A DNA stretch of 64,000 nucleotides from an uncultured Nitrososphaerota archaeon (GCA_964635675.1 CAZWPT010000016.1:18522-82521); one strand, 5' to 3'; shown: positions 45,444 through 51,964, counted from the stretch's first letter. Notes: generated by a model from the sequence alone, not told the origin. A program made the numbers and translations.

Positions 45444-45881
45444 TTAACTTTTTTCCTTCCACCATTGGAAAAGCTTTTTACTCAACTCATGTATCTTCCT
45501 AGCACTATCTATTGCTTTTTCAGCATCCTCTTTGGAATACAGTTCTCTAGGAGGAATGAGTGCTTTCTCGTCGCCGTAGAAAGCTGGGCCTCTCTCCTCC
45601 ACAAGCCTCTTACTCGCAACGCTGATTGTCTCCAGTTCAAACCTGAACCAATCCGGGAGTTCCCTCATATGCGCTATCTCAACAAGGGCGTCGCTGACAT
45701 CGTGTTCACGCGGATACTCTATTCCCAGAAGTCTGAGAACAGCTTTCAGGCTTAGTTCAACACTTTCCTGTGCTCTCCTAATCGTTCTGTGATACATATC
45801 CTTGGCGAAGGCTTCTTCAGCCTCATAGAGGGAATACTTAGCGTCGTCGAGATAGCCTTTAGCCATAGCCTCAGTATTCAA
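45444..45881 (-). CDS. HEPN domain protein (toxin of a HEPN-MNT module)
   Basis: 145 aa, all-alpha, with a HEPN-like region. It lies immediately downstream of the MNT gene and overlaps it by 4 nt. Confidence 0.65.
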   Translation of the reverse strand: MNTEAMAKGYLDDAKYSLYEAEEAFAKDMYHRTIRRAQESVELSLKAVLRLLGIEYPREHDVSDALVEIAHMRELPDWFRFELETISVASKRLVEERGPAFYGDEKALIPPRELYSKEDAEKAIDSARKIHELSKKLFQWWKEKS

Positions 45882-46417
45882 ATCTCAACAGCCTCACCAC
45901 GTTTTATATCCGGTTTCAAATCCCAAAGCCATGTTCCGTTCTTAAGGTAGATACGTCTAGCTTTCAATTCATCCAGCCTTCTCCTGAGGCTCGTGAAAAT
46001 CGACTCCATGAAACTATCCTTGTCAACCAAGATAACTGCATCCTCAACCATATCCAGGTAGACAGGCCTATGGATTTTTGCTTCCTCCGGCGTAAGAGGG
46101 TAGAATTGCACCCACGTGTTAATGCCTTTCTTCCTAAGCTCCTTGTAAGCTTGAGCGTCTCTCAGCTTAATCAGGATTTTAGCCATGACCTCCATTTTCT
46201 CACTAATCCTTTTAGGAAGATTTTCTGCAACAACCAGAATATCCGTATCGCTAGTCGGCTTAGCATCTCCTCTTGCTACAGAACCGAAAACAACTACACT
46301 TACAAGTCTTTCTCCGAAAAAACCATTAAGAAGACTAAGAACCTCTTTAATAAACTTCCTTCTATCCGGATCCATTATACTGGCTAATCCATGTCTAGGC
46401 TTCATCAATCCTTGCAT
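45878..46417 (-). CDS. minimal nucleotidyltransferase (MNT; antitoxin/AMPylase partner of HEPN)
   Basis: 179 aa with the Pol-beta NTase signature FGSVARGDAKPTSDTDILVV. Confidence 0.75.
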   Translation of the reverse strand: MQGLMKPRHGLASIMDPDRRKFIKEVLSLLNGFFGERLVSVVVFGSVARGDAKPTSDTDILVVAENLPKRISEKMEVMAKILIKLRDAQAYKELRKKGINTWVQFYPLTPEEAKIHRPVYLDMVEDAVILVDKDSFMESIFTSLRRRLDELKARRIYLKNGTWLWDLKPDIKRGEAVEI

Positions 46418-46481: not shown

Positions 46482-46973
46482 GTGAGATGGAACAAGTCGA
46501 TATGGCTAACAGATGGTGAAGGAGAAACCTACAGCAAAATTAATATTATTCGGAAAACCTCCCGCGGCATGAGCCATGAAGTAATAGAGGTCTCGACAAA
46601 AACAAGGCAACAGCTTGTGGAAGTCACTTCAGCCATAAGGGAGCTGGTTAGAAGGAGCGGTGTGAAAAGGGGCGTCTGCTTCATCCATGTTCCGCACACA
46701 ACCGCCGGAATAACTCTGAACGAGAATGCTGACCTCAGTGTAGCCAAAGACATTCTCAACACTTTAGACCGCTTAATACCTGTGGAAGGCGATTACACCC
46801 ATTTGGAGGGTAATGCCCACGCGCATGTTAAAGCAAGCATCGTTGGACACAACGCGATCCTGTTCATAGAGAATGGGGAACTCACACTGGGAACTTGGCA
46901 GGGAGTTTTTCTATGCGAGTTCGACGGGCCCAGGAGGCGGAGGATTCTAGTAAAGATAATGGAGAATGCTTAA
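46482..46973 (+). CDS. YjbQ/UPF0047-family protein (secondary thiamine-phosphate synthase-like)
   Basis: 163 aa. The [22 protein letters not shown] and LGTWQG motifs are characteristic of YjbQ. Confidence 0.75.
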
Positions 46974-47683
46974 GGTTTGGAGCGTGCAAATAGCTCACTA
47001 TCGATGGCCAGCAATACTATTGTTAAGAAGTTAATGCATATGGCTGTTTGTATAACAGCATCGTTTGTAACCCAGGGAGAAAGGCGTGGTGTTTCAACCC
47101 TCAAGTATACTTCAGACGGTTCATCCGAGGAATTTGAAAGCTCCACCAGAACAACGCATCTTCCTTGCCCTCCCATGCTGAACCAGCCGAGATCAATCTG
47201 GTCAACCTTATCCACCCAGAGACAGCCTTTGAAAGAAACCCGTTTCAAAACGTTTCGCGTTTCACCAGTGTCGCTGATAACCGTAACCACCCCGTCGAGA
47301 CACCGTGTCCCGGGGCCGGTGATCCTCAGATGGTAAAACCCGCCCTGCTCCAAAACCAGGTCTAACTGCGTCCTTTTTTGAGTAATCGCTTGTGCGTGAA
47401 CCAGCTTCTTAAGCCCGCCGAACTCGGAGCAGAAAGCATAGGCGGATAACCCTAGGCCCAATAGAGACATCGCGAGCACCAGGGGTAGAAGCTTTCTCTT
47501 CAAGTTGCTTGCTTTGAAACCAGATTGGGGTTTTTCAAGGCTCGGGGACTGGGAAAAAGTAGTATAAATCATGAGTATGATGAGCATAACCACGGGTAGA
47601 CTAGCGCCATCCTCAAGCAGAGATATGACTATCGAGAGAGTGGTAAGGTAGATGGTAGCAGGGTTGACACTGTCCCCTGACAT
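46970..47683 (-). CDS. hypothetical membrane/secreted protein
   Basis: 237 aa with an N-terminal TM, a second TM and a C-terminal TM. No recognisable family. Confidence 0.35.
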
Positions 47684-47692
47684 TTTTAGAGC

Positions 47693-47929
47693 CTAGAGCA
47701 TAAGCTCAAGGGTTGCGCCCAGGGTGAACATCGTCAGGAAGACGCCTAGAAGCCTGAGATCCAGGTAGGCTGGGCCCAGCCATGTAGAAGTCAGAGTCCA
47801 GTTTTCCCCCTCGCCGTAAATCATATGGATACCCAGGAAATCCTTCCTAAGACCGAGGCTGATTGTGCCCTTGGCATACCCTAGAATCGGATCGTCTACT
47901 AAGAGCAGGATGTGCCTCAGCACCTGCAC
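47693..47929 (-). CDS. small hypothetical protein with a C-terminal TM
   Basis: 78 aa. It lies between two membrane-protein genes on the same strand. Confidence 0.25.
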   Translation of the reverse strand: MQVLRHILLLVDDPILGYAKGTISLGLRKDFLGIHMIYGEGENWTLTSTWLGPAYLDLRLLGVFLTMFTLGATLELML

Positions 47930-48013
47930 CGTGAAGAGCCTTGGAGAAACTATGCTGCCAGGCTTCCTGCAAAGGGCTCAGGTGTTTAGAGCAGCCCACA
48001 GCTCTGAGCCTCC

Positions 48014-49018
48014 TCAGAGATCCGTGTAGTCGAGCACTAAGGGGAGCCCGGGTAAGGCCGGTATTCTAGTTAGGCTGCTCGCCATCCTCCAGGCGTCTAT
48101 GCTCCACCTGCGCTGAGAAGGGGTTTCCGAACCCTTATCCTTTATTGAGAAGGCTTTCACGAGCATTGGTGAGGATGCTATGAGTGATGAGACTATTCCG
48201 CCTAAGAGGCCCAGCGGATTCAGAAAGACTGTTGCTAAAAGCCCGGTCAGCAAGCCTACTGCGACGATGGCTGCGGAGGCGGTTAGCATTGTTGCCCGTG
48301 ACCTTGTGCTCAACGGGTACTCGACGAATAGGACCCTGCCCCCGGACGCGTCTAGGAGAACCCTGTGCGGCTTACCCTTGTAGACGTACTCCATTAGCCA
48401 GAATGGGTAGTGGACGAGCCCAAGGTAGTTGACTTCAACGTTCTCAAGCCTCTTCGAGCCTCCGCAGCTCCTGCTAGCCTCAGCCATAGCCTGACCAGAT
48501 ATTAACCGGTATGCGGCGTTGTAGGCTTCCTCGTAGCTCAAGGTAGGCATGTAGAACCTGCTCCTCTGGGCTTGACCAGGGTTGAAGAAGCTTCTCCCCC
48601 TCACCGAGAACGAGAGTTCCTTGGCGTAGCTGTCGAGCCAGGTGCCTGTGTAAGCTGCCAGAATAGGCGTGTTCCGGGTCTCAAGGTAGCTGGCCTGCTT
48701 ACCGCCATAGGAGCAGGAGGAGTATGCCTTGCAGCTGAAAACATGGTAGGGAACGTTGTAGAGCTCGGCTTTGCGAAGATTAGCCTCAGCGTTGAAATCA
48801 TCCGGGACGCCGTACCTCCTGGTTATGAACTGCATTGCTTTACGCCAGGCTGACGGGCTCTCCACGTAGGCTGGGAACATGTAGTAGGTCCAGGTCTTCC
48901 CGGTTGAAAGCTCGAAGGTGTGGCCGCAGTAGGGGCAGACGATTATTGAGGCTGATTGCGGCGCGTTTATAGAAGCGTTGCAGTTTAGGCACGTGACTGT
49001 CTTCAGACTCATTTCCAC
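48014..49018 (-). CDS. zinc-ribbon membrane protein of unknown function (paralog A)
   Basis: 334 aa with an N-terminal CxxC-x17-CxxC ribbon (CLNCN...CPYCG), a roughly 200-aa soluble domain, a YxYKGK motif, and 2 C-terminal TM helices. Confidence 0.5.
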   Translation of the reverse strand: MEMSLKTVTCLNCNASINAPQSASIIVCPYCGHTFELSTGKTWTYYMFPAYVESPSAWRKAMQFITRRYGVPDDFNAEANLRKAELYNVPYHVFSCKAYSSCSYGGKQASYLETRNTPILAAYTGTWLDSYAKELSFSVRGRSFFNPGQAQRSRFYMPTLSYEEAYNAAYRLISGQAMAEASRSCGGSKRLENVEVNYLGLVHYPFWLMEYVYKGKPHRVLLDASGGRVLFVEYPLSTRSRATMLTASAAIVAVGLLTGLLATVFLNPLGLLGGIVSSLIASSPMLVKAFSIKDKGSETPSQRRWSIDAWRMASSLTRIPALPGLPLVLDYTDL

Positions 49019-49971
49019 CTTTCCTCCCTAACGTCGCTAACAGCCCTGCTCGCCAGGAGGGCTCCGGCTGCTGAAACAAGTATGAAGCCGAGTACTGGAA
49101 ACCATTCTCTGAAAGATGTTAAGAGGGCCAGTATGAAGGCGCCTGCCGCTACTGACAGGGTGCTTCCGAGTATGTACAGTATTCTCTGGCCTAGGAAGAC
49201 TGGTTCCGAAACCCTTAGGAATTGAAGGGTGTAGCCTGAGACGCTTGCCCTATACATTCCACCCTTATACTTGTATACTAGGCTCCAAATCGGGGCCAGC
49301 AGTATCCAGAGCGAGTTCACCCTGGCCTCGCAGGAATAGTAGTAGAAGCCGTCTAAGCCGTTGGAGGAGCGTGTGCTTTCCCTCAGCTCGTCCTCAACCA
49401 TGTCCTTAAGCTCGTCCTCAGCCTCCTCGGGGAGAAGCTCAGCGTTTAAAACCTGGAGCCCAACGTTCCTCCAGTCTATCGCAGCCAGGGGTTGAGGGTC
49501 TTTAGCGGACTTCGCCTGGCTCACAAGCTCCTCCAAGCCGTACTCGGCAGCCTCCCTCCTCGCCGTGAAGGCGAGCCTCATCGAAGTGTTGAAAGACCCT
49601 TTCTTCGTCACGGTCTTGGTGACGTATGATTTACCCCTTTTCTCAGTAACCCTCCGGAAGCCGGACCACTCGCCGACTGCGGAAACATCCCCCATGAGAA
49701 TCGGCACGTAGAAGCCCTGAGCCTCGACAAGCTCAATGTCGCTGTAGACCCTGCTCATATCTGGGTCGCTCCTCATCCTGCTCCAGAAGGCGTTCACCAC
49801 CTCGTCCCTTGTCCGAGTCGGCAGTATGAATATTTCAAACCTACCTGTGGAGAACCAGTTGACCGTCCCACAGTATTCGCACACGCACACTATTGTCTCA
49901 GGAGTGTAATTCAAGGGAGCACCGCAGTTTGAGCATTTGAAGACCTTTTCAGATATGGTTGACTCTGTCAA
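49009..49971 (-). CDS. zinc-ribbon membrane protein of unknown function (paralog B)
   Basis: 320 aa with an N-terminal ribbon (CSNCG...CEYCG), a YKYKGGMYRASVSG motif and 2-3 C-terminal TM helices. It overlaps paralog A by 10 nt and the upstream gene by 4 nt. Confidence 0.5.
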   Translation of the reverse strand: MTESTISEKVFKCSNCGAPLNYTPETIVCVCEYCGTVNWFSTGRFEIFILPTRTRDEVVNAFWSRMRSDPDMSRVYSDIELVEAQGFYVPILMGDVSAVGEWSGFRRVTEKRGKSYVTKTVTKKGSFNTSMRLAFTARREAAEYGLEELVSQAKSAKDPQPLAAIDWRNVGLQVLNAELLPEEAEDELKDMVEDELRESTRSSNGLDGFYYYSCEARVNSLWILLAPIWSLVYKYKGGMYRASVSGYTLQFLRVSEPVFLGQRILYILGSTLSVAAGAFILALLTSFREWFPVLGFILVSAAGALLASRAVSDVREERWK

Positions 49972-50378
49972 CGCCTACCAATCCTTGAAACTATTACCCC
50001 GACCACGACGATTATTATGAGGGATATGCTCAGGTTAAGCGGCAGGTTTCCGGTGAGAAGCGTTAGGAAGAGTGAGAAACCAAGGCAGCACATCACTAGT
50101 CCCCAAATAAGGTAGTACTTGAAGTCGGCAGCGTGAATCGAGAAGAAAACAGTGTAGAACCCAAGCATGATGAGCGGCAGTGAAACTAGAATAAGCGGTT
50201 CACCGTAGCCTGTTGAAAACAGTATGCCGTCTATGCCTATTGAAACTAGCAGGACAGCCAGCGCGTAGCCTCCATACCCGACTTTTCTACTCATCTCATT
50301 AGCCTCAGAACCACAAGGCGAGCTTTGAATATATAACTTTTCCCTATCTTCGCCAAGGATTGAAGGGACATTGAGCAC
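49968..50378 (-). CDS. small polytopic membrane protein (4 TM)
   Basis: Four hydrophobic helices. The likely true start is the internal Met at 50294 (MSRKVGYGG...), with a TATATA box at 50329-50337. Confidence 0.4.
   Translation of the reverse strand: MLNVPSILGEDREKLYIQSSPCGSEANEMSRKVGYGGYALAVLLVSIGIDGILFSTGYGEPLILVSLPLIMLGFYTVFFSIHAADFKYYLIWGLVMCCLGFSLFLTLLTGNLPLNLSISLIIIVVVGVIVSRIGRR
50329..50337 (-). promoter_or_regulatory. TATA-like box (TTATATATT on the minus strand) upstream of the 4TM / Zn-ribbon membrane operon
   Basis: About 35-40 nt upstream of the internal Met at 50294. Confidence 0.3.
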
Positions 50379-50384
50379 CTAGCC

Positions 50385-50690
50385 TCAATTTTCCTCGTTA
50401 TGCTCACCAATTCTTCTGGGCCAAGCTCCTCGTGAGAACCTAGCGCGCGCTAATAGGACAACCCTTCCATCCCTCATGAGTTTTCCGATACGTCTAACCG
50501 CCTCCTCAGGATTAACATGTGAAAAACCGTTTTCATCCCAAGCGGCAACGCCGCCAGACCTGGTCGCCACAAAGTAGTTAGACTGAGTGAAAAACCTCTT
50601 TAACAGGAAGGTCTTCCCGGTTTTCCGACTCCCGTAAACCAGTACCCATCCTATTAGACCTCTTAATTCGTCTTCCTCCCCCTGCTTACT
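50385..50690 (-). pseudogene. degraded N-terminal fragment of an archaeal-type P-loop ATPase (PF01637-like)
   Basis: An in-frame stretch ...GWVLVYGSRKTGKTFLLKRFF... (Walker A) has no in-frame ATG/GTG/TTG upstream. An ATG sits one frame off, with an extra G in a GGG run. The reading frame stops after about 105 aa, whereas family members are 350 aa or longer. Confidence 0.4.
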
Positions 50691-50700
50691 ATGATATGAG

Positions 50701-50736
50701 GAATATTCTCCACAGAATATTCCCTTTAGAATATTC
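50701..50736. repeat. three direct copies of the 8-bp palindrome GAATATTC at exact 14-bp spacing (candidate operator array)
   Basis: GAATATTC at 50701, 50715 and 50729, with context gGAATATTCtcc / aGAATATTCcct / aGAATATTCtca. On the minus strand the array lies just downstream of a TATA-like GTTTATGA, upstream of the ATPase fragment. Confidence 0.6.
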
Positions 50737-50812
50737 TCATAAACCTTTAGCTTATCCTATGCACCAGTTCAGATCTGCCTCTTGACCATCGACTCTACTT
50801 GTTTAATTCAAA

Positions 50813-51964
50813 CTATTGGAGCTTTGCACCGCAATTAAGGCAAAACTTTGAGCCCTCAGGCACCGTGGACCCGCATTTCGGACAGTTAACACTCTGAGGC
50901 TGCAACTGAGCTCCGCAGTTCATGCAGAACTTTGCGCCAGCAGGGTTCTGTGTTCCGCATTTCGGACAATTCACCGTGGCCTGCATGGGTGCACCGCAGC
51001 TCATACAGAATTTAGCTGTGCTCGGGTTCTGCGTCCCGCATTTCGGGCATGCTACTGTTCCTGCTGGAGGCGCGGCTGGTGGCTGCGCCGGCGGTGGCGG
51101 GGGTGCTTGGATGGCTGCGCCGCAGGACGGGCAGAACTTGCTTGTGGAGGGTACTTGTGCTTTGCAGCTTGGACATATGACCATTGGTGCTGCGGCAGCC
51201 TGCTGCATTAGCTGGGGCACCAGAACTATTCCTGTTCCAGCCGCCGCCCCGGGCGACTTGCTCAGGGACTCGGCGACGCTCTTAGTCGTGTCCATCGCCA
51301 TGACTTGTGTCGCAGCGCCGCCGGTCTGCTTTATCCAGAACAGCCTGTCCCTGTACTCCGGCGTGGTGTCAACACCCTCAAACTTTAGGTCTATGACGTC
51401 TACGCCGACACGCTTAAACTCCTCGTCTATCGTTGCCTTAACCTTGAACGAAACCTCCTCAAGCTTTGTGAAGACCGTCACAAGGTCGTATTTCGAGAGC
51501 TGCGTTATCAGCCTCTCGTTCATGAATCCCCGTAGGAAACTGTTTACGGATTCAGTGGTGTATGCGCTCTGCCCTCCCACGACCTCCATTACGAACGTCT
51601 TAGGATCCCCGATTTTAAACCAGAATGCCCCATAGAACTTCAGGGGTGCGAGCTCAACCGTCTGCCCGCTGGCTCCGAACAATCCTTTAAACTGCTTCGT
51701 GGAGACGAATATGACTGTGGCTTTGAAAGGCGTGGTCTCGAAGCCAGCCACCCTTGTTAACACGCCTGTGAGCAGCGGCAGGTTCATCGTTGTTAAAGTA
51801 TGTCTGCCAGGCCCGAAGACATCGTAAGCCTTGCCGTCCCTGAAGAATATTGCAGCCTCATACTCGTGGACGATCAGCTGAGCACCCCAGGTTATCTCCT
51901 CCTTCGGGTATCTCCAGACGATGTCGTCAGCGGAAGCCCCTATCCACTCTATTATCTGAGGCAT
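50813..51964 (-). CDS. SPFH/Band-7 superfamily protein (PF13421-like) with four C-terminal zinc ribbons
   Basis: 383 aa. The N-terminal IEWIG..DDIVWRYP...GAQLIVHEYEAAIFFRDGKAYDVFGPGRHTLTT matches the SPFH-like family. The C-terminus has a Pro-rich linker and 4x C-P-x-C-G...KFCxxCG. Confidence 0.7.
   Translation of the reverse strand: MPQIIEWIGASADDIVWRYPKEEITWGAQLIVHEYEAAIFFRDGKAYDVFGPGRHTLTTMNLPLLTGVLTRVAGFETTPFKATVIFVSTKQFKGLFGASGQTVELAPLKFYGAFWFKIGDPKTFVMEVVGGQSAYTTESVNSFLRGFMNERLITQLSKYDLVTVFTKLEEVSFKVKATIDEEFKRVGVDVIDLKFEGVDTTPEYRDRLFWIKQTGGAATQVMAMDTTKSVAESLSKSPGAAAGTGIVLVPQLMQQAAAAPMVICPSCKAQVPSTSKFCPSCGAAIQAPPPPPAQPPAAPPAGTVACPKCGTQNPSTAKFCMSCGAPMQATVNCPKCGTQNPAGAKFCMNCGAQLQPQSVNCPKCGSTVPEGSKFCLNCGAKLQ
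50816..51175 (-). repeat. in-frame tandem repeats encoding four zinc-ribbon modules (roughly 23-aa / 69-nt units)
   Basis: Nucleotide-level repeats (ccgcatttcggaca... three times) encode CPKCGTQNP..AKFCM.CGA..Q units at aa 264-283, 306-325, 333-352 and 361-380. Confidence 0.8.

Follow-up and report, generated by a model that had tools for sequence, protein, structure and literature searches.

A five-gene archaeal SPFH cluster with two paralogous YdjG/SamG-family proteins in a Nitrososphaerota genome

This study concerns five successive minus-strand open reading frames (ORFs) at positions 46970-50378 of a 64,000-nucleotide (nt) stretch of DNA from an uncultured Nitrososphaerota archaeon (GCA_964635675.1 CAZWPT010000016.1:18522-82521; the whole stretch is called the window). 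A preliminary description of the window had presented them as a tightly overlapping operon of uncharacterised membrane proteins, two of which are paralogous zinc-ribbon proteins, here called A and B. Our analysis suggests, with a probability of roughly 0.65, that these genes make up the distal portion of a five-gene SPFH membrane-scaffold cluster of Thermoproteota (Thermofilaceae-like) archaea, in which the YdjG-like proteins A and B would anchor an SPFH protein. Gene neighbourhoods in related archaea indicate that the real unit consists of five genes, which encode a helical protein of 178 amino acids (aa) (h178), an SPFH protein with zinc ribbons, a small protein with four transmembrane (TM) segments (4TM), A and B.

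The comparison with the pspA-ydjGHI operon of Bacillus subtilis was made because the gene upstream of the flagged ORFs encodes an SPFH protein of the Band_7_1 type with C-terminal zinc ribbons; the ydjGHI operon was located in Bacillus genomes through a published ydjG primer. Pfam and NCBIfam scans of the five flagged proteins returned, for A and B, nothing beyond sub-threshold zinc ribbons. Profile comparison was more informative: the B-family profile matched Bacillus YdjG in hhalign at 99.85% (E=1e-30, 261 columns), and profiles built from archaeal sequences only matched it at 97.3% for A (E=2e-11) and 96.5% for B (E=9e-10, 230 columns). A direct phmmer comparison of YdjG with the 320-aa paralog A (w320) gave 26 bits, and one protein, P0032, bridges the two, with phmmer E-values of 7e-8 to w320 in a database of 5.8e9 proteins and 3e-60 to YdjG. 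YdjG and the archaeal family consensus alike carry P-x-W..Y-x-Y..VDG.tG.V..P, followed by a TM segment. The published description of YdjG (PMC11237479) gives it two zinc ribbons, a YpeB-related domain that is uncharacterised, and a TM segment. A and B likewise have a zinc ribbon, a YpeB-related (PepSY/NTF2-like) alpha+beta domain and then a C-terminal TM anchor, and the single archaeal ribbon aligns with the second ribbon of YdjG. These matches identify A and B as archaeal homologues of the YdjG/SamG family, which overturns the earlier statement that no characterised family was recognised. The preliminary description had named a mapping to PspA partners as evidence against its proposal, and such a mapping was found for the paralog family, since A and B belong to the YdjG/SamG family; experiments in B. 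subtilis have addressed YdjG as the protein that anchors PspA and the SPFH protein YdjI/SamI to the membrane (PMC8581546; bioRxiv 10.64898/2026.02.06.704340).

A and B are true paralogs, as had been proposed for the 320- and 334-aa proteins: they share 23% identity over their full length (BLASTP, E=1e-8), and their orthologue profiles match each other at 99.3% (E=2e-20, 251 columns). Each has one N-terminal Cys4 ribbon, in which the four cysteines are invariant in 96 sequences; the alignment reads its spacing as CxxC-x14-CxxC, not as the CxxC-x17-CxxC first reported. The ribbon itself and the Y-x-Y-K-G motif were confirmed in both proteins, and the motif proved to belong to a family-wide P-x-W...Y-x-Y block, with P205 invariant and Y211 near-invariant in the 96 sequences. 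Two C-terminal TM helices had been proposed for each paralog; this holds for the 320-aa protein, whereas in the 334-aa protein one helix is predicted strongly and the other more weakly. An exhaustive phmmer search of 1.84e9 clusters yielded 268 representatives of the paralog B family at E<=1e-3, all of which have an N-terminal CPxCG...CPYCG ribbon, then the P-x-W...Y-x-Y...VDG.tG.V..P block and then a TM segment. The AlphaFold 2 (AF2) model of paralog A is confident (predicted local distance difference test score, pLDDT, 88.7; predicted template modelling score, pTM, 0.78). It places an alpha+beta domain between the ribbon and the two TM helices, the fold running from the ribbon through a helix, a very long beta-hairpin sheet and a second helix-plus-sheet unit to the TM hairpin. 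The orthologues point to an old duplication of A and B, which are separately recognisable in every locus. Beyond its second TM helix, paralog A ends in the tail (V/I)SDVREE(K/R)WK (window 49009-49040, minus strand), which is near-invariant among A orthologues down to ~33% identity and forms a short beta-strand in the AF2 model. This SDVREExWK tail is a candidate cytoplasmic docking motif.

The second line of evidence is the SPFH protein. It matched Pfam PF13421 with 113.5 bits (cutoff 24), contains four Zn_Ribbon_1 stretches, and aligned with Bacillus YdjI by BLASTP at E=5e-18 over both the SPFH domain and the ribbon; TM prediction yielded no segment in this 383-aa protein. Like YdjI/SamI, it thus combines a Band_7_1 domain, no TM segment, a low-complexity linker and C-terminal zinc ribbon sequence, and the alignment identifies it as a homologue of YdjI/SamI with the same architecture. 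Its four zinc-ribbon repeats, CP(S/K)CG..x..FC..CGA (window 50813-51200, minus strand), correspond to DNA repeats of ~81 nt with ~70% identity; the ribbon copy number may vary among relatives, in which the SPFH proteins range from 316 to 385 aa.

The third line of evidence is gene linkage. In three annotated loci of close relatives (L013, L014 and L009; 81-67% identity), the genes form one contiguous order: the 178-aa helical protein, the Band_7_1 protein with zinc ribbons, the 4TM protein of ~110 aa, A and B. The distant loci L001/L002 (35%) and L004 (29%) retain SPFH-A-B. The helical-protein gene adjoins this group in L001/L002 and lies a few kilobases off in L004, and no 4TM gene was found in either. 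A metagenome scan added 61 loci of 23-96% identity, near-duplicates included. B lies immediately downstream of A in all 48 loci with enough sequence, and the SPFH and helical-protein genes occur together in 14 of the 24 loci with adequate flanks (34 of 61 overall). Linkage of A/B to a Band_7_1 SPFH gene with a zinc ribbon was observed in the window, in L001, L004, L009, L013 and L014, and in 34 of the 61 metagenomic loci. Four gene orders were found: h178-SPFH-4TM-A-B, h178-SPFH-A-B, A-B-4TM-h178-SPFH and 4TM-h178-SPFH-A-B. Since the order is permuted while the membership is constant, these arrangements are good evidence of functional linkage, and the comparison indicates that divergent archaea have kept both the A-B tandem and its linkage with the remaining three genes. 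The five flagged genes are therefore not the set that is conserved together: only 4TM, A and B are kept, together with two upstream genes not included in the preliminary description. The anchor genes are further expanded in L058, L059, L054 and L055, where two tandem A-B pairs, or a third, longer (~420-aa) B-like copy, lie beside 4TM-h178-SPFH.

The two remaining members are small proteins of families of their own. As first described, the 136-aa ORF of the window has four predicted TM segments; the four helices make up nearly all of the 108 aa of the protein as delimited by public gene calls, and the orthologues in L009, L013 and L014 have 107-112 aa. At the loci with permuted orders, the homologues have 103-116 aa and match in all-vs-all phmmer with E-values of 1e-5 to 1e-11, so that the small proteins with three to four TM segments of every gene order are one family; its conserved motif is (K/R)(F/Y)Y(L/F)xWG. 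No Pfam family scored above its cutoff, a sub-threshold match to DUF3188 being the only one, and a role as an NfeD/YuaF-type partner was rejected, as no NfeD match was obtained at E<=1. The h178 family comprises 118 detected homologues and reaches Brockarchaeota, Nitrososphaeria and Chloroflexi. Pfam has no family specific to it; a zinc-ribbon domain occurs in one member, and the motifs PGYxGYKxKExRRExDKxLR and YGYAGFFD are characteristic. The AF2 model of h178 is a four-helix bundle with a pLDDT of 79. The same helical family lies directly upstream of a Band_7_1 gene, with or without a zinc ribbon, in the h178-Band_7_1 dyad (NCBIfam LIMLP_15305-like), located at 5472-7638 in L021/L022 (Chloroflexi) and at 6001-7481 in L023 (Nitrososphaeria). 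In the Chloroflexi dyad, the SPFH gene is preceded by a tandem of small genes, of 171 and 176 aa.

The gene positions in the window are given in Table 1. The five ORFs of 136, 320, 334, 78 and 237 aa were found again at the same coordinates on the minus strand. Overlaps of 4 and 10 nt had been reported between them; the tight overlaps are real, but with internal ATG starts both junctions become 4-nt overlaps, TTGA and ATGA, and these starts are favoured by gene callers and by the N-termini of the orthologues. Upstream, the SPFH gene starts 2 nt past the stop of the h178 gene. Downstream, a gap of 84 nt separates paralog B from the 78- and 237-aa ORFs (w78 and w237), and the 3' end of w237 overlaps a convergent YjbQ gene by 4 nt. 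Scans for tRNA genes and Rfam families across the window were empty.

Table 1. Coordinates of the cluster genes and of the ORFs among and beside them, in window positions.
Feature	Coordinates	Strand	Remarks
Helical protein, 178 aa	51967..52503	-	Soluble, all-helical, four long helices; first gene of the cluster
SPFH protein, 383 aa	50813..51964	-	Band_7_1, no TM segment, Pro-rich linker, four tandem C-terminal zinc ribbons; putative YdjI/SamI-like scaffold subunit
AAA_14-type archaeal ATPase remnant	50388..50741	-	Internally deleted pseudogene, outside the conserved system
4TM protein, 108 aa	49968..50294	-	Putative small membrane subunit; ORF reaches GTG at 50378 (136 aa)
Paralog A, 320 aa	49009..49971	-	TTG start, TTGA overlap with 4TM stop; YdjG/SamG family, predicted tail anchor
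Paralog B, 332 aa	48014..49012	-	ATG start, ATGA overlap with A stop; 334 aa if from GTG at 49018
w78, 78 aa	47693..47929	-	GTG start; not in conserved cluster
w237, 237 aa	46970..47683	-	Membrane ORF, three predicted TM segments; not in conserved cluster

The two distal ORFs were rejected as components of the system for their non-conservation in related loci: neither w78 nor w237 occurs in L013, L014 or L009 or in any of the 61 metagenomic loci, among them the 96%-identical L024 and L025, and in L014 the convergent YjbQ gene directly follows paralog B. For w78, tblastn gave no match in any related locus, and it is called as a gene solely on contigs of the same species. It shows sub-threshold similarity to the C-termini of O-antigen/oligosaccharide repeat-unit (Wzy-type) polymerases (Pfam 17.6 and NCBIfam 19.8 bits), and may be the relic of such a C-terminus, that is, of a lost glycosylation gene, or no gene at all. 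A glycosyltransferase gene follows paralog B in L013. For w237, a single homologue cluster (P0301, 71% identity) was found among 5.8e9 proteins; it sits among HEPN/nucleotidyltransferase (NTase), HepT and DUF3368 genes in a region rich in toxin-antitoxin genes, unlinked to YdjG-like genes. Searches of w237 in Pfam, PADLOC and PHROG returned nothing, and its tblastn search against phage records was empty.

The ~0.5 kb that separates the SPFH and 4TM genes in the window is not found in L013 or L014. It holds an ATPase remnant reduced to its Walker A N-terminus plus a short stub of the C-terminus. With 88% identity, the remnant matches residues 13-88 of a 426-aa ORF that is intact at the same position in L025 (L025:4320-5600), and an internal deletion of ~949 bp could be mapped (window 50452|50440 = L025 4582|5532). 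L013, L014 and L009 do not have this gene, and their SPFH and 4TM genes abut; the relatives that lack it have 67-88% identity. The ATPase was rejected as a component of the cluster, being restricted to a sub-lineage with an intact copy in L025, missing from the three loci just named and reduced by the deletion in this genome; it looks like a recent insertion inside the operon that then decayed. A full-length ATPase_2/DUF234 gene lies at 4558-5964 in L011/L012, ~2 kb upstream of an A-B pair with no nearby SPFH gene, and the window remnant is 41% identical to its N-terminus. Although seen twice, the presence of such a gene near A-B is probably a coincidence among abundant archaeal ATPases. The region downstream of the cluster is variable as well. 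The stretch between paralog B and a CxxCxxCC gene differs among close relatives, and L025 lacks ~5.5 kb that here hold w78, w237, the YjbQ gene, an NTase/HEPN pair and HAD, ThiS and AP_endonuc_2 genes. Toxin-antitoxin-like pairs of NTase (PF01909) and HEPN (PF05168) genes lie just downstream of the cluster in the window (~45444-46417, minus strand) and in the L016/L020 neighbourhoods.

The function of the cluster can be approached through its Bacillus counterpart. In B. subtilis, deletion of ydjG or ydjH abolishes the membrane recruitment and the foci of YdjI and PspA; YdjG binds YdjH, and YdjH binds YdjI and PspA (PMC8581546). A 2026 preprint, which renames the genes samGHI, reports that SamI, an SPFH protein of the cytosol, is recruited by SamG-SamH; in its model, SamG-SamH form a complex that senses membrane stress and is restrained by SamI (bioRxiv 10.64898/2026.02.06.704340). 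By analogy, A and B would form a hetero-oligomeric platform, anchored C-terminally by a TM hairpin, with their zinc ribbon and alpha+beta domains predicted to face the cytoplasm; this platform may include the 4TM protein, and would recruit the SPFH protein, otherwise soluble, to the membrane. Ring or cage assembly is typical of SPFH proteins, and the archaeal one may oligomerise there in this way, organising or monitoring a membrane patch under envelope stress. The h178 protein is probably the soluble regulatory or effector partner of the SPFH module; its gene occupies the slot beside this module that PspA holds in Firmicutes, but the two proteins are not homologous. The suggestion that co-transcribed genes here encode an internally duplicated complex associated with the membrane is supported, with the interactions themselves assigned by homology, and of the roles first suggested, envelope stress is the best functional guess.

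The archaeal cluster and the Bacillus operon resemble each other in that the genes are operonic, and a need of the SPFH protein for membrane partners in its recruitment, shown in Bacillus, would extend to the archaea. They also differ in several respects. The archaeal cluster has two tandem YdjG paralogs, whereas Bacillus has YdjG and the TPM-domain protein YdjH, which matches PF04536; the second YdjG paralog holds the YdjH position in the archaeal cluster. A and B each have one zinc ribbon and a TM hairpin, whereas Bacillus YdjG has two ribbons and a single tail anchor, and the SPFH protein has four ribbons against one in YdjI. The gene order differs too, and in place of PspA the archaeal cluster has an unrelated four-helix protein (~175 aa) and a 4TM protein (~108 aa), both missing from the Bacillus operon.

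Several points weigh against reading the cluster as an SPFH scaffold anchored by A and B. The functional data come from the B. subtilis homologues, and every interaction, topology and physiological role proposed here for the archaeal members is read by homology. No PspA (PF04012) was found in the archaeal loci read, a result at the level of the locus, and no TPM-domain YdjH/SamH was found among the window proteins or in the annotated archaeal neighbourhoods. The interaction logic of Bacillus is therefore not simply transferable, since PspA and YdjH/SamH, the direct binder of YdjI and PspA, are absent from the archaeal loci read. Moreover, in ~40% of the A-B loci whose flanks are long enough, no SPFH gene lies within 6 kb (e.g. 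L011 and L033-L037), so A-B may also work without an adjacent SPFH gene, and the counts overstate independence because the 61 loci include near-duplicates. Conversely, the h178-SPFH dyad of Chloroflexi and Nitrososphaeria occurs without A-B, and hence without YdjG-like anchors, and without the 4TM gene. Finally, a TATA-like element, AAAAGTTATATAT, lies at about 50330, ~40 nt 5' of the 4TM ATG. Because this element and the ~0.5-kb pseudogene lie between the SPFH and 4TM genes, it is uncertain whether the five genes are all co-transcribed in this genome, and 4TM-A-B may be transcribed apart from h178-SPFH.

Other explanations were considered. The cluster could be a PspA-independent machine for membrane repair or remodelling, in which h178 is a new membrane-acting effector that replaces ESCRT-III/PspA and in which SPFH, A, B and 4TM form the sensor and recruitment platform. 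The h178 gene is the most constant neighbour of the SPFH gene in archaea and Chloroflexi alike, and its product stands in for PspA as the operon-encoded soluble helical partner. Its assignment to PspA/ESCRT-III was rejected, as no PspA homology was detected, which agrees with a new effector; however, no amphipathic or TM segment is predicted in h178, and we regard this explanation as unlikely. A broader proposal, that the cluster is a self-contained archaeal membrane-stress module independent of PspA/ESCRT-III, with the wholly uncharacterised h178 and 4TM families as effector and sensor, and older and broader than the Firmicute SamGHI, is speculative, and we hold it to be doubtful.

The SPFH module could also regulate a membrane protease or transporter, as in HflK/C-FtsH or stomatin-NfeD, with A, B and 4TM as substrates or adaptors, not as anchors. 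It is common for SPFH cages to house proteases such as FtsH and NfeD, and a small multi-TM protein is encoded beside the SPFH gene, as are YuaF and YqiJ with flotillins. The flotillin/YqiK-YuaF(NfeD) and HflK/C operons indeed resemble the cluster in encoding an SPFH scaffold with small membrane proteins, with an expected role in microdomain organisation or stress. However, the SPFH proteins of these operons are anchored by a TM segment or hairpin of their own and have C-terminal domains of the flotillin or coiled-coil type, and their partners are NfeD OB-fold proteins or proteases, none of which occurs in the archaeal cluster. Neither the cluster members nor the conserved neighbourhoods contain a protease or an NfeD/OB-fold domain, and the archaeal SPFH protein, unlike HflK/C and stomatin, lacks a membrane anchor of its own, which makes this possibility quite improbable. 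Least credible is an anti-virus defence or abortive-infection membrane system, one of the roles first suggested. The nearby HEPN/nucleotidyltransferase toxin-antitoxin pairs and variable region, the ATPase gene inserted and then lost within the cluster, and the extra A-B copies at some loci would fit such a system. None of seven proteins, however, matched PADLOC at E<=0.01, the PHROG matches were confined to zinc ribbons (sub-threshold, paralog B), the position between housekeeping dehydrogenase genes and the YjbQ gene is syntenically stable in relatives of 75-88% identity, and the characterised homologues serve envelope-stress physiology. We favor the scaffold anchored by A and B, as stated above.

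This study also provides insights into SPFH modules in general. We read the cluster as an archaeal variant of the YdjG/SamG-YdjI/SamI SPFH module, whose core families are already known and whose function we infer from them. In the literature searched, the association of YdjG with an SPFH protein is described as a Firmicute feature, and archaeal homologues are unmentioned. SPFH proteins are universal, but, to our knowledge, B. subtilis is the only species in which the membrane targeting of the anchor-less Band_7_1 subgroup has been studied. A conserved archaeal version would mean that the YdjG-SPFH partnership spans both prokaryotic domains, and this version adds duplicated YdjG-type anchors and two new partner families, with no YdjH or PspA in the locus. 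It would thus uncouple the YdjG-SPFH partnership from PspA/ESCRT-III. Through the cluster, four families without family-level Pfam annotation, namely the YdjG core, h178, the 4TM family and the archaeal A/B subfamilies, also receive names and testable partners, and structural studies of SPFH recruitment may gain a thermophilic complex that is probably stable.

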